Positions 14,162-19,072 of a stretch of 64,000 nucleotides of DNA are shown here, piece by piece. The notes under the pieces were generated by a model. It saw only the letters and a program-made list of their open reading frames with translations. It searched no databases and was not told the origin of the DNA. Source of the DNA: an uncultured Veillonellaceae bacterium (GTDB lineage: Bacteria > Bacillota > Negativicutes > JARBTT01); the NCBI GenBank assembly GCA_963805085.1, contig CAWDTA010000003.1:32001-96000 (forward strand), read 5' to 3'. The position numbers were made by a program, and so were the translations under genes. Within the stretch, counting starts at the first letter, position 1, and each line of letters opens with the position of its first letter.

Positions 14162-15028
14162 ATGAATCTTAACCTTAATTGTATACTCTGTAATTTAAAG
14201 CAAGTCTTAACAGTAACAGATTTGGTCAAACTTGATTCTGTTAGCCGAGAAATAATTATGCGTGATGTTCTTGGATATTTACATGAAACTAATTTTAGAA
14301 GATCTAACCCTGAAGTTATAAAGGGTACGTGGGACATTATTACGAAGCATATAAAAAATACTAATCCTTACAGAGAAATAAAAAATTACTACAATCGTGA
14401 AATTATTAATATTGCTGACAAGGTAAGAAATATAATTAATGATTCGGACGATAAGTTCATGGCAGCCTTAAAAATTGCTATTACAGCGAACTTGATTGAC
14501 TTTGCTGCTAGTCATACTTTTGACGCAAAAATGCTGTTTGAAAAAATAAATTCTATTAATGAGCAAAATATGCCCATTGATGATAGTAAAAAATTATTCG
14601 AAAATTTAAAGAACGCAAAAACTTTGCTGTACTTGGGGGATAACTGCGGCGAAATTGTTCTTGATAAGATTTTTATCGAATACATACACAAAGTATTTCC
14701 GAATATTAAAGTTTATTTTGGTGTAAGAGGCGAGCCGATTGTTAATGACGTTACAATAGAAGATGCAGATATGGTGAAAATGGAAGAAGTGGCTGAAGTA
14801 ATTACTAATGGCGATGGTTCGCTTGGTACGGTAATTGAAAAAACGAGTTTAGTTTTTAAAGATGTATTTTATAAAGCTGACGTAATTATTGCTAAAGGTC
14901 AAGGAAACTATGAAAGCTTGAGCGAAATCAATCGCAGTCATATTTTCTTTCTTTTTATGGCAAAATGTAATGTTGTAGCAAGTTCATTGAACGTAGCTAA
15001 TCTATCAATAGTTTGTTGTGAGAATTAG
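14162..15028 (+). CDS. DUF89/ARMT1-like metal-dependent phosphatase
   Basis: CxxC N-terminus, ANLID, GDNCGE, PIVND, KGQGNYE. Confidence 0.88.
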   Translation: MNLNLNCILCNLKQVLTVTDLVKLDSVSREIIMRDVLGYLHETNFRRSNPEVIKGTWDIITKHIKNTNPYREIKNYYNREIINIADKVRNIINDSDDKFMAALKIAITANLIDFAASHTFDAKMLFEKINSINEQNMPIDDSKKLFENLKNAKTLLYLGDNCGEIVLDKIFIEYIHKVFPNIKVYFGVRGEPIVNDVTIEDADMVKMEEVAEVITNGDGSLGTVIEKTSLVFKDVFYKADVIIAKGQGNYESLSEINRSHIFFLFMAKCNVVASSLNVANLSIVCCEN

Positions 15029-15304
15029 ATAAGGCAATATTTATACTTACATAAAAACAGGGACAGGGGACTCAAATCCAAACACAGGAAGTGAGTCCAT
15101 GTCTCGTACATCTATTTCAACAATCCACAATTTTATTAAAAATGTTTTTCAACACATCCAGAGTATGCACTTAGCAATTTGAAAAAAGCAATCTGGTAAT
15201 ATGTCAAGCCCATAAAAAATAAATTTTGTAAGCAATCCGTAAAAAATGGGTGCACTAAACAAGCTTCTTCTTCAAAACAAAGAAAAAGTAAAATAATGGA
15301 ACTA

Positions 15305-16585
15305 TTAAATTTGGCTTACTCTACTTGGAGAGTAAAGCTGATGGTTGACCAGCAATCCAAAAATCAGCCGGATGAATTTACGAGCAGTAAGTGCGAGTGC
15401 GCGTTTGTGCTGATGAGTTTTAACTTCATCATACTTTTTCTGGTAAAAAGCTGCATATTCAGCTAAATGATTCTTTACATGGCTTGCAGCTTCAATTAAA
15501 TAGTATCTGAGATAAGTATTGCCAGCTTTTGAAAGGATGGTATCATCGGCTCTGAAATTGCCAGATTGGTTTTCACGCCAGACAAGACCAGCATATTTAG
15601 CAAGAGCTTCCTGAGACTTAAAGGCCTCAATAGAACCAATCTCAGCAATAATGCCAGCAGCATAAACCGGACCAATTCCAGGAATGGATAAAAGGCTTTG
15701 GTAAGCGTTAGGATCAAGTCCCCGAAGCGTTTTCTCAATAGCCTTATTGATAGCCTTCATTTCAGATTCATAGGCTGAAATAAGGTTAAATGATGAGGCG
15801 ATAGAGATAGTTAAAGGCTCGTATAAACATTTATCCAATCGGTAGGAATTGCGAGCGGCTTGCTGTAGTAAAGAAGCTGTGTGTTCAGGATTTGCAAAAC
15901 GATTTTTGCCTTTTTTACAAATGTGTTCAATTAGTGCTGCCATCGGCATGTTAGCGATATCTTCGGTAGAAAGAAAATCAGTTAAAACCGAAGAAGCGGC
16001 AGCGCCATAGTTATTAGAAAAGGGCTGCTTATCATCGTCGAGAATAGAAAACTCACTAAATTTAAGAAAGATGTTTGAAAGCATATAGGTTTTCTCACGA
16101 GTAAGAGAACGAGCTATATGTAATCGATGGCGAGTTAGACGCTGCAAAGCTAAAAATTGACTGCCGCGCCAAGGAGCAGAGGTAATTCTGCCAACTCTAG
16201 CAAAATCAGCGATAATAAAAGAATCAATTGCATCAGTTTTGCCTAGACCGATATAAGACTTTTTGTAATTGGCAACCATCTTGGGATTTATACAGTAAAC
16301 ATGAGTGTCAAATGGCATCAATAATTCACAGGAAGATAAGTAGTTAGCTATGTGAATACCATAGAAAGATGTAGATTCTAAGGCAACAACCAGCTTATTA
16401 AGATCATGATTTTCAGAAAAAAAATCATGAAACTTTTTAGCCATTTCAACTGCACCTGGTTGATTATTGGGCACAGTAAATCGCAACAGTTTTTGCTCTT
16501 CAAAATCAATAGCGCAAACGACATTTTCGCGGGAACTTATGTCAATTCCCACAAACAAAGTAGAAAGAAGATCCGCCTTCTTCAT
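15305..16585 (-). CDS. IS110-family transposase/recombinase
   Basis: DEDD RuvC-like residues GIDIS, LESTS, KTDAID; C-terminal SIPGIG and QSG serine. Confidence 0.95.
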   Translation of the reverse strand: MKKADLLSTLFVGIDISSRENVVCAIDFEEQKLLRFTVPNNQPGAVEMAKKFHDFFSENHDLNKLVVALESTSFYGIHIANYLSSCELLMPFDTHVYCINPKMVANYKKSYIGLGKTDAIDSFIIADFARVGRITSAPWRGSQFLALQRLTRHRLHIARSLTREKTYMLSNIFLKFSEFSILDDDKQPFSNNYGAAASSVLTDFLSTEDIANMPMAALIEHICKKGKNRFANPEHTASLLQQAARNSYRLDKCLYEPLTISIASSFNLISAYESEMKAINKAIEKTLRGLDPNAYQSLLSIPGIGPVYAAGIIAEIGSIEAFKSQEALAKYAGLVWRENQSGNFRADDTILSKAGNTYLRYYLIEAASHVKNHLAEYAAFYQKKYDEVKTHQHKRALALTARKFIRLIFGLLVNHQLYSPSRVSQI

Positions 16586-16649
16586 AGAAATGTCACCACC
16601 TTTCTGGCTGAGAATAAGAAAGATAGAAAAGGAATACCCTGATCTTATT

Positions 16650-16918
16650 CACTGACCGCAGCCTCGCATAATAAGCATTCATCTGTGAAAGTAAATTTGC
16701 TGGAAAGCTTTCGCCAAGAGACGCAACATCTGTGTAAGCGGTATTTGATGAATAAGGCAGGCGTCAAGCTTTAAAAGCAATAACCAAAAGGTTTCGCAAG
16801 GAGGATAAGACGTTACCTTTGCTAAAATCTCTTAGAAATATTTTAGCATCAAGGGATTCCTTTAAGCATTAAAAAATAAAAAATAAGTTTTGTAAACAAT
16901 GGCGGATTATTGTTTACA
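16650..16918 (-). ncRNA. Putative IS110 bridge RNA
   Basis: Structured non-coding left end. It has a match to the target flank (16798-16805) and a 12/13 complement of the donor right half (16663-16675). Ends are approximate. Confidence 0.6.
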
Positions 16919-16945
16919 AAACTTATTATACGAGGAGGAATTAAA

Positions 16946-19072
16946 TTGAACTTTTTTAAGAATCGTTTAAAAGTAGATGTTGGAGTGGATACCAACATGA
17001 AAACGGAGACGAAAAGTTTCTGGGGTATACGGAATCGACTAATTGTCATATTTTTGGCAATTACTTTTATTCCTTTGATCGTAGTGGGGTTTTTTATAGA
17101 TTGCAACATACGTAGCAGTGCGCAAGCAGATTTCACTACAGCGACTACGCGTGAGGTAACTCAAGTTGATAATGCAATTTCTATATTTTTTGACGGAATG
17201 AAGAAGAATACTAAAATGTTGGCTGAGAGTCCTAGCATCCGGCGGATGGATGGAAAGCTTACCTTATATATGGACAAGACTGGTGGGGCGGATGGCATGG
17301 CGCCAATGAAGCCTTTAGAAACAGGGGGATATGAAGCGAATCTTTATAGTACTTTCGGGCAGGTTATAAAGGCGCATCCGGAAGTATCTACAATTTCTTG
17401 GGGAACTTCGGACGGAGGATACCTTCAATATCCGGCTATACCACGAAAAGCTGGTTACGATTCTCGTGCTAGAGATTGGTATAAGGATACAATCAAGCAA
17501 CCGGATAAATTATTGTTAACCGATCCTTTTTTAACATCTAAAGGCATCCCTACAATCGGTGTTTTTACAACTGTTCGAAATCAAGACAATACGATTAAAG
17601 GTGTTTTGGGCTTTAATATTGATTTGCCTGTAATTACAGAAATGATAAACAATATGAAGATGGGAAAAACTGGGTATGTAATTCTTCTTGATTCCCATGA
17701 TACAATAATCGCCAATCCAAAGAAACCAGATATGAATTTCAAAAATATTAAAGAAATGCAGATTGATGCTTTTAATGATATCAATAGTCTTGCTGGAACG
17801 TCTGTCGAAGTAACAATTGATGGGGTAAAACACCTTGCAAATGTAGTGGTATCGCCAACTACGGGGTGGAAATACCTTTGTTTGGTCGATGAGAATGAGG
17901 TGTTTTCTCAGTCGATTAGACTTCGACAAGTGATAATGGTTGCCACGTTTATTACTATTCTCATTGTGTTAGTCATTGCATTTTTACTGTCAAATCGAAT
18001 TGCAAAACCGTTAGTTACAATGGTACAAGTTTGTGACGAACTTGCTGCCGGTGATTTTCGTGATAAACCACGTCAAATGCTGAGAAAAGATGAAATTGGT
18101 CAATTAGCCGATGCTCTAGTAAATATGCGGGGGAGTATTCGTACGGTTTTTAAGCAGGTCAATGAATCGGCTGAACAGGTGGCGGCATCTTCGGAGGAAC
18201 TAACTGCCGGGGCAGAGCAGTCGGCGCAAGCTATTAGTCAGATAGTCGGAGCAATTAGCGATGTGGCACACGGAGCAGAGCAGCAATTGAAAGCAGTAGA
18301 CGGAACATCGGCAGTGGTAGAACAGATGTCAGCTGGTATTCAGCAAGCCGCCGCTAGTGCTAACCAGGTAGCCGGTATTTCATCGCAAGCCGCAGAAAAG
18401 GCAAGAGACGGCGATATGGTGGTGGAGCAGGCTGTTAGTCAAATGGAACATACTGAACAAAATGTCAATAAATCTGCACAAGTCGTTGCTAAGTTGGGCG
18501 AAAGGTCTAAAGAAATCGGGCAGATTGTTGATACGATATCTGGAATCGCTGGGCAGACCAATCTACTGGCGCTTAATGCCGCGATTGAAGCTGCCAGAGC
18601 CGGAGAACAGGGAAAAGGATTCGCCGTTGTAGCGGAAGAAGTGCGCAAGTTGGCGGAACAGTCACAAGAGGCGGCAAAACAAATTGCTGCCATGATTAGT
18701 GAAATTCAGGGTGATACAGATAAAGCCGTTGTCGCCATGGACGAAGGTACCCGCGATGTCAAAGGTGGGACGGAGGTTGTCGTTAAAGCAGGTCAAGCAT
18801 TTAAGGAAATTAGGGTTTTGGTAACGGAAGTTTCAGGACAAGTGAAGGAAATCTCTGCTACTATGCAGCAAATGGCCAGCGGTAGTCAGCAAATCGTAGC
18901 AGCTGTGAAAGAAATTGATGGGCACAGTAAAATGTCGGTTGGAAAAGCCCAGGCAGTGTCGGCGGCTACAGAAGAACAATCGGCCTCCATGGAAGAAATT
19001 GCTTCATCCAGTCAGAGTCTTGCTAAGTTGGCACAGGATCTTCAAACAGCCGTCAGTCATTTCCGGGTTTAG
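16946..19072 (+). CDS. Methyl-accepting chemotaxis protein (dCache + HAMP)
   Basis: Two TM segments, YDSRARDWY cache motif, [38 protein letters not shown]; TTG start after AGGAGG. Confidence 0.95.

Follow-up and report, generated by a model that had tools for sequence, protein, structure and literature searches.

An IS110-family element at Shine-Dalgarno sites and its probable bridge RNA, whose target guide resembles the 3' tail of 16S rRNA

Introduction

The non-coding left end (approximately 16932-16586, minus strand) of an IS110-family element from an uncultured Veillonellaceae bacterium is very probably a bispecific bridge RNA that directs the recombinase encoded at 16585-15305 to ribosome-binding sites. 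Coordinates are those of the window, the whole stretch of 64,000 nucleotides that was analysed, and those of the element and its RNA are on the minus strand. Bridge RNAs and seekRNAs are established partners of IS110 elements in the published accounts drawn on here in part (PMC11208160, PMC11208158, PMC11187229). A sequence-only reading of the window had proposed a bridge RNA at this place, and comparative tests of both the structure and the covariation of guides with DNA have borne that proposal out. The comparisons described below show where the element ends, that the RNA structure is conserved, that guides covary with DNA, and what kind of sites are entered and in what geometry. The target guide carries the sequence of the 16S rRNA 3' tail (CCUCCUU), and the element therefore integrates at a CT inside the antisense strand of a Shine-Dalgarno (SD) sequence. 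Judged by sequence comparison, SD targeting is a trait of a whole IS110 clade and is not peculiar to the window copy; it is common to relatives down to approximately 58% protein identity and occurs in many metagenomes.

Methods

Relatives were collected by a scan of species-representative genomes, which gave 38 loci, and by a profile scan of metagenomes, from which the best 80 of 311 loci were taken. In all, 100 loci were examined: the window, the 80 from metagenomes and a selection of 19 from the genome scan. A left end of 250-460 nt was recognisable in 72 loci, 62 of which were distinct; loci lacking a left end of the form CGTAT[ATG]AT were left out, as were locus L145, whose left end is broken, and locus L098, whose left end measures 470 nt. 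The structure alignment was made from 35 non-redundant sequences less than 93% alike. For the left target guide, 62 unique loop-flank pairs were compared, with the register set on the loop alone. A second genome contributed at least 15 left ends of the element, 94% identical.

Results

Borders of the element and its recombinase

The main features of the element are as follows.
15187..16934, minus strand: whole IS110-family element, CT core at each end included (copies and flank comparison)
16934-16933 and 15188-15187, minus strand: left core and right core (flank comparison)
15305..16585, minus strand: recombinase (transposase) gene, 426 aa (Pfam, NCBIfam, PDB)

The element is 1.75 kb long and occurs in its own genome as three full copies at 100% identity and one truncated copy, which is interrupted within the transposase gene by unrelated sequence (C2 1949416-1950446, locus L004). 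Flank comparison set the borders, with CT followed by CGTATAAT at one end and CCAGATTG followed by CT at the other, and the left junction of the window copy reads, on the minus strand, AATTCCTC in the flank, CT, and then CGTATAATAAG. On the same strand, the left end starts at 16932 and the right end runs up to 15189. Sequences diverge just outside the CT at 4 left and 3 right junctions in the own genome, and at a further 15 left and 8 right junctions in the second genome; because the flanks diverge exactly outside CT...CT, the element spans 15187-16934 with both cores. The short identical core on both sides, together with the absence of terminal inverted repeats, is what would be expected of an IS110 element with a bridge RNA. 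No empty site was found when the left flank was searched in the own genome and in the genomes of 30 relatives (31 genomes, those searched being distant).

The 426-aa open reading frame matches the Pfam families DEDD_Tnp_IS110 (PF01548, 1.9e-29) and Transposase_20 (PF02371, 1.5e-22), and it scores 228.8 bits, against a cut-off of 140, with the NCBIfam model NF033542, 'IS110 family RNA-guided transposase'. A match to the IS621 transposase in the PDB (8wt6, E 5.3e-9) extends over the C-terminal domain. Five residues, D15, E70, D118, D121 and S341, are invariant across seven homologues of 38-78% identity, and S341 aligns with the serine of the IS621 ESG motif; by a count made on the printed alignment, that serine would be the catalytic S241 of IS621. 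The protein thus has, at the level of sequence, both the DEDD RuvC-like N-terminal domain and the C-terminal Tnp domain with its serine that characterize these recombinases.

A conserved two-loop RNA fold

The following elements of the proposed RNA structure were delimited, all on the minus strand.
16631..16860: structured core of the bridge RNA, closed by the long-range helix P1 (16860-16848 with 16643-16631); covariation
16847-16840 with 16828-16821: P2 hairpin; covariation
16762..16812: target-binding loop module; RNAalifold and covariation
16812-16809 with 16765-16762: closing stem of the target loop (CGUC:GACG); covariation
16808-16798, 16797-16790 with 16785-16777, and 16776-16766: 5' loop, inner hairpin and 3' loop of the target module
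16756-16748 with 16652-16644: helix enclosing the donor module
16655..16742: donor-binding loop module, closing stem 16742-16738 with 16659-16655; RNAalifold and covariation
16719-16716 with 16685-16682, and 16712-16708 with 16691-16687: inner helices of the donor module

The non-coding left end is 347 nt long, lies upstream of the recombinase gene and has a conserved fold in which a closing stem and an inner stem-loop accompany each of two internal loops. Its layout runs from a hairpin with a T run through P1, P2, the target loop and the donor loop, which lies within an extra helix, to the second strand of P1 and the transposase ribosome-binding site (RBS). The proposed structure comprises 55 pairs in eight helices. 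Covariation among homologous left ends, named as a check by the sequence-only reading, upheld this fold: across the 35 homologues, 80.9% of cells are paired, against 36.3-42.8% in controls in which the 3' partners were slid by 1-3 columns. Two-sided changes were found in 38 of the 55 pairs, with 334 cells showing such a change versus 62-82 in the slid controls, and the covariation score was 0.464 versus 0.09-0.14; none of 500 shuffles reached the observed paired fraction or score. RNAalifold alone recovered the enclosing helix and the stem that closes each loop, with numerous two-sided changes. This enclosing helix has two-sided changes in all nine of its pairs, with 91% of cells paired; P1 is the weakest helix (9/12 pairs, 64% of cells), partly because the alignment is poor in its region. 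Within the inner hairpin of the target loop, a bulged A at 16781 ('A86') is invariant in 35/35 sequences, and a flipped-out A occupies the corresponding place in the IS621 structures, as far as the excerpted report describes them (Hiraizumi et al. 2024, PMC11208158).

The stem that had been read as closing the target loop (16820-16810 with 16765-16754) stood in its inner portion, 16812-16809 with 16765-16762, which covaries. Its outer portion, AAAGG with CCUU (16757-16754), was rejected, as it clashes with the strongly covarying helix 16756-16748 with 16652-16644. Three helices suggested by RNAalifold were likewise rejected: columns 149-152 with 156-159, which lie inside the covarying left donor guide; columns 210-211 with 219-220, which are invariant; and columns 117-120 with 246-249, which compete with P1 and, unlike P1, show no two-sided changes. 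A helix UUGC:GCAA (16726-16723 with 16700-16697) was not adopted, since its partner is G in four and A in three of the cases in which the U is a C, and since it would cross well-supported helices. An Rfam scan of 14800-17300 with E values up to 10 returned no curated family and only spurious microRNA and sRNA matches, the best being microRNA models on the hairpin with E of at least 0.29, far under the gathering scores.

Target guides covary with the flanking DNA

Two target guides were placed on the minus strand.
16799..16806: left target guide AUCCUCCU, repeating the top strand across left target and core; identity and covariation
16769..16773: right target guide UAAAG (AG opposite the core, AAU opposite right-target bases 1-3); covariation

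The first loop thus repeats, on its 5' side, the top strand of the left target and core and complements, on its 3' side, the core and the right target. The segment UCCUCCUU at 16805-16798, described from the sequence alone as identical to a reconstructed target, is indeed identical at 8/8 positions to the left flank, the core and the first right-flank base, the last being matched by U16798 next to the left guide; the reconstructed target itself agrees with the flanks of the four own-genome copies. A match this good was equalled in 18 of 2000 dinucleotide shuffles of the 347-nt left end, and the target and donor-guide matches jointly in none of 2000. AAAG at 16772-16769, likewise pointed out from the sequence alone, is on the opposite (3') side of this internal loop, and a hairpin (16797-16777) separates the two sides.

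Across the relatives, at variable positions, the left target guide matches its own left flank in 184 of 338 comparisons, versus 121.5 +/- 7.2 when flanks are permuted (0/5000), and when each distinct guide is counted with a single flank (n=35), 101/190 match versus 65.4 +/- 5.9 (0/5000), all such permutation tests being inflated by kinship among the sequences. This signal is located at positions 4-8 from the core T, with position 6 alone giving 47/62 versus 22.4, and is absent at position 9; the guide is therefore approximately 8 nt long. For the right target guide, AG lies opposite the core in all 59 unique loop-right-flank pairs. Complementarity at right-target position 2 was found in 46/59 pairs versus 27.9 permuted (0/1000), and at position 3 in 26/59 versus 18.0 (12/1000), while positions 2-5 together gave 113 versus 85.1 +/- 6.2 (0/5000). 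Among the same 59 pairs, a cognate signal was absent at positions 1 and 4-6.

Donor guides and handshake bases

The second loop contains the donor guides, and handshake bases follow the right-hand guide of each loop (all minus strand).
16663..16675: right donor guide CUUAUUAUGCGAG; complementarity to the core and the start of the left end
16723..16732: putative left donor guide CAGAU[GU]UGC, equal to CAGAT-TGC of the right end if two RNA bases bulge out
16768-16767: handshake dinucleotide CU, 3' of the right target guide
16662-16661: handshake bases GC, 3' of the right donor guide

On its 3' side, the second loop complements the core and the start of the left end. The right donor guide had been recognized in the sequence-only reading, and all 13 of its bases (16675-16663) pair with this stretch, 12 by Watson-Crick pairs and one by a G-T pair at donor position 12; one in 2000 dinucleotide shuffles equalled the match. 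GCGAG (16667-16663) is invariant in 35/35 sequences and stands opposite CTCGT, which is conserved at the left ends of relatives. In several relatives, a 1-nt deletion puts the long complementarity, the extension back to 16675, out of register, and the full length of this guide may for that reason not be needed.

The left donor guide, which could not be placed confidently from the sequence alone, now has a probable place at 16732-16723, suggested by the covariation of its pentamer. The pentamer CAGAU (16732-16728) equals the donor pentamer in 59 of 63 loci and breaks the rule in four, and five covarying classes, CAGAT, CAAAT, CAGAA, CAGGT and CGGAT, are each mirrored in the RNA. Contiguity of this guide with the core requires a 2-nt bulge in the RNA, and since the core-proximal UGC/TGC never varies, we advance the continuation of identity up to the core C as a proposal. 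The right-end-like segment GAAUGCU at 16682-16676 was considered as a guide and rejected, as it is unchanged in the group of relatives with right ends in ...ATTGCT and in that with ...AATGCT.

The handshake bases, too, fit position 7 of the non-cognate DNA. In the target loop, the first of these bases complements donor position 7 in 64/64 loci, as C-G7 in 63 and as U-A7 in the single locus in which both have changed, and the G of the donor loop stands opposite target C7 in 66/71. Across the relatives compared, covariation with cognate DNA is thus seen in all four guides, the GCGAG of the right donor guide and the UGC of the left being invariant, and permutation controls in the overall guide-flank tests never reached the observed matches. 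By this arrangement, the first internal loop would read the target DNA and the second the joined ends of the element itself, with RNA-guided strand exchange proceeding, as published work on IS621 suggests, via a circular intermediate.

Insertion sites are antisense to Shine-Dalgarno sequences

The site occupied by the window copy is the following.
16933..16948, plus strand: target site on the gene strand, AGGAGG at 16933-16938 intact beside the flank (sequence)

The suggestion that the guide is aimed at ribosome-binding sites is supported by the consensus of the flanks, by covariation and by the geometry of start codons. The 19 distinct left flanks of this element type (four in the own genome, 15 in the second genome) have the consensus (A/T)TCCTCCT, which is the sequence of the guide, and the right flanks read T, T, A/T. 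All 19 present the antisense strand of an SD sequence; the opposite strand of the consensus reads (T)AAAGGAGGA, followed by a start codon. More widely, 60 of 78 unique left flanks have an ATG, GTG or TTG opening a reading frame 5-21 nt from the core A, at 12-13 nt in 40 of those 60 and with 13 nt as the modal class. Three of the 18 flanks that fail are false regular-expression matches, and most of the others show AGGAG and ATG by eye, with a short reading frame or a short flank. The recombinase gene is antiparallel to the gene hit in every flank examined. Beside the window copy, a TTG at 16946-16948 (plus strand), 13 nt from the core A, is in frame with a chemotaxis-receptor reading frame that ends at 19072. 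With a CT at each end of the insertion, a complete AGGAGG is restored beside the gene, which would be separated from its own promoter by the 1.75 kb of the element. The chemotaxis-receptor frame has, besides this TTG, an alternative start, ATG at 16997 (plus strand), with its own GGAG.

All eight 16S genes of the genome end in CACCTCCTTT, so that the loop and the rRNA tail share the 7-nt CCUCCUU, and the guides of some relatives (UCACCUCCU) share nine bases with the tail. The genome contains 137 exact TCCTCCTT sites, 73 of which precede, on the gene strand, a start codon and a reading frame of at least 60 aa.

A preference for ribosome-binding sites could also arise from protein-DNA recognition, or from selection after random insertion, with no RNA guides involved. 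CTCCT is nearly invariant and hence cannot by itself show covariation; besides, 601 of 1198 genomic AGGAGG sites lie away from gene starts while insertions are mostly at gene starts, for which reason a further filter for true gene starts may exist. This explanation is nevertheless very unlikely, because guide and flank covary at the positions next to CTCCT on either side of the core, because the orientation of insertion is strictly fixed in every flank examined, and because experiments on IS621 found that guides set specificity, according to the parts of the report used here (Durrant et al. 2024, PMC11208160). Targeting by a bridge RNA remains our preferred reading of the sites.

Promoter elements, the terminal hairpin and expression

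Three further features were recognized at the ends of the element, all on the minus strand.
16925..16930: TATAAT -10 hexamer, left end (sequence)
15202..15207: TTGACA -35 hexamer, right end, facing outward (sequence; same distance from the core in most relatives)
16882..16927: terminator-like 19-pair hairpin followed by a T run, 5' arm starting inside the -10 (fold and terminator search)

Joining of the ends would create the sequence TTGACA-17 nt-TATAAT across the core, and a promoter rebuilt across the junction has been described for IS110 elements in the portion of the literature cited (Durrant et al. 2024, PMC11208160). By analogy with work on IS621, the bridge RNA would be transcribed from this promoter, which exists only in the circle. 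The hairpin with 19-bp arms that had been noted as overlapping the -10 is present at 16927-16882 and starts inside the TATAAT (16930-16925). Among relatives, 37 of 55 distinct left-end starts have a hairpin with 8 or more pairs and a T-rich tail, and these terminator-like hairpins always begin approximately 6 nt into the left end, likewise inside the -10 hexamer. A transcript that starts approximately 7 nt after the -10 would lack most of the 5' arm, from which we infer that the hairpin terminates only transcripts entering from outside; transcripts from the junction promoter would begin within that arm and continue past it. No promoter-like site for the RNA, including one for its -10, was found in the integrated copy, and a candidate promoter downstream of the hairpin, picked by eye, was dropped, being plausible in one relative and absent from the window copy. 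Weak expression of the bridge RNA from integrated IS621 is described in the cited part of PMC13626964. Across 15100-17100, all seven terminator-like sites are on the sense strand of the element and none is antisense, with 1.7 expected in shuffles; this would, we speculate, allow a host promoter to read through towards the gene.

Production of the window RNA, its binding by the recombinase and its setting of specificity are predicted from the sequence and from the likeness to IS621. Three public RNA runs each contained 0.07-0.10 of the sampled words and, at 85% likeness, yielded contigs of a relative only. One metatranscriptome contig of 2647 nt, from a relative approximately 90% identical, covers 16500-16937 and may derive from DNA, giving no starts, ends or strand; the same contig also ends at an AGGAG...ATG site.

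Besides its part in targeting, the RNA, or the target loop alone, might act in trans as a mimic of the anti-SD sequence and dampen the translation of host mRNAs. The loop is single-stranded in the consensus structure and has 7-nt identity, CCUCCUU, with the 16S 3' tail; a relative's left end is also found in a metatranscriptome contig whose word depth is high, which may however be DNA. Against such a role, the CCUCCUU identity is fully accounted for by DNA targeting, and in the published IS621 structures, so far as the excerpts of the report go, the recombinase holds the loop (Hiraizumi et al. 2024, PMC11208158). That an element should both find genes by the ribosome's code and, through its target loop or the RNA of a mini element, act on host SD sequences to modulate translation is something to which we attach very little weight. 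Ribosomes are vastly more numerous than any such RNA, and we regard a trans-acting anti-SD role as unlikely.

Least probable of all is that the region is nothing other than the leader of the transposase mRNA, in which CCUCCUU acts as a cis anti-SD that hides the element's own RBS and resembles the flanks incidentally. The target loop can pair with the RBS region of the transposase in a generic manner (mean best pairing 8.13 of 11), and in a single-sequence fold that RBS sits in a hairpin with an upstream CU-rich strand, but the cis pairing carries no cognate signal (8.13 versus 8.02 +/- 0.083 permuted, 205/2000 at least as high), the RBS already has another partner in the fold, and covariation with DNA is seen at the variable loop positions, along the 3' strand of the loop, in the donor loop and at the handshake bases. 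In this single-sequence fold, the transposase RBS (GAAAGGUGGUGA, 16604-16593) pairs with the CU-rich strand in 16593-16628, and some translational control may result.

Discussion

The predicted bridge RNA shares many features with that of IS621, as described in the portions of the IS621 reports used here. In both, the left end of the element encodes the RNA, ahead of the gene for a DEDD/Ser recombinase, and the guides take in the core, which is CT. Each RNA has two internal loops, and each loop comprises a stem, an inner stem-loop and two guides, of which the 5' one repeats the top strand and the 3' one complements it. The G-T pair at donor position 12, the bulged A in the inner hairpin of the target loop, the handshake bases 3' of the right-hand guides and the junction promoter are likewise common to both. 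The two systems differ in several respects: the proteins have only distant similarity (E 5.3e-9 over the C-terminal domain), and our RNA is longer, at approximately 230 nt from P1 to P1 as against a reported 177 nt in IS621, with a long-range helix closing it and additional helices in its donor loop. Furthermore, its left donor guide would be split by a 2-nt bulge, whereas that of IS621 is described as pairing contiguously to the core, its terminator-like hairpin overlaps the -10, and its natural target is a Shine-Dalgarno sequence.

That an IS110-family element should target translation-initiation signals has a precedent in IS900 of Mycobacterium avium subsp. paratuberculosis (Doran et al. 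1997, as related in part of PMC8141618), which our element resembles in this respect. IS900 is described in the same source as having a long 'hed' reading frame opposite the transposase, dependent on host signals; no such long frame was found here, the longest plus-strand frame in 15187-16934 encoding 78 aa. CazIS110-1 of Caloranaerobacter azorensis (bioRxiv 10.1101/2025.10.25.684509), as far as the available portion of the preprint goes, is similarly a Firmicute IS110 element with a two-loop bridge RNA and several genomic copies, and the words 'ribosome', 'RBS' and 'Shine' have 0 occurrences in that portion of its text. An anti-SD guide is absent from those parts of the main text of Durrant et al. 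(PMC11208160) and of a large 2026 survey preprint that were available to us. No paper connecting the guide of a bridge RNA with the anti-SD sequence was found in the main-text literature, and supplementary tables of target motifs may well contain this clade. RBS targeting by IS110 elements is thus already in print, and the programming of a natural guide as an anti-SD sequence is apparently undescribed.

These results provide a concrete account, at the level of the RNA, of why some IS110-family elements sit at gene starts. Since the guide is a copy of the anti-SD sequence, any genome that uses SD sequences offers hundreds of landing sites, and those who employ these recombinases should be aware that such a natural guide is inherently multi-copy. 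The retention of the SD sequence and the fixed orientation matter for annotating insertions and for judging polar effects. Additionally, the comparative set of 35 distinct guides with their sites can serve as a test bed for guide rules outside IS621.

The same genome contains several reduced relatives of the element. A mini element of approximately 230 bp (G000:C2, about 1165300-1165528; loci L006 and L008) lies at an SD-like site beside a start codon and consists of the left end, the hairpin, P1/P2 and a complete target loop (guide UUUCGCCUCCU) joined directly to a right end, with neither donor loop nor transposase. It recalls reports of movement with an RNA that contains the target loop alone. 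For the seekRNA of ISEc11 and IS1111-type elements, the target-recognition part by itself suffices for movement according to the part of the report cited (Siddiquee et al. 2024, PMC11187229), and there too an upstream non-coding region gives rise to a short RNA that matches both target strands; those systems concern other elements and targets, and the putative mini element is the sole link to the target-only result. Two further loci are decayed: in one (L005, C2 1166400-1166534) the left end is broken inside the target loop and fused to a transposase fragment, and the other (L007, C2 625609-625674) is a solo left-end hairpin at a CTCCTCCT site.

Beyond the window clade, relatives at 37-47% protein identity, namely loci L025-L029 and L036 (Paenibacillus, Cohnella, Brevibacillus and others) and L031 (Chloroflexia), still have ...CCUCCUU or ...UCUCCUU on the 5' side of a structure resembling the target loop, and their left ends are longer than those in the window clade. 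Finally, over the same 1533 model positions, six of the eight 16S rRNA genes of the own genome span approximately 1669 bases and two approximately 1556, which suggests that most copies contain an insertion of approximately 113 nt, possibly an intervening sequence.
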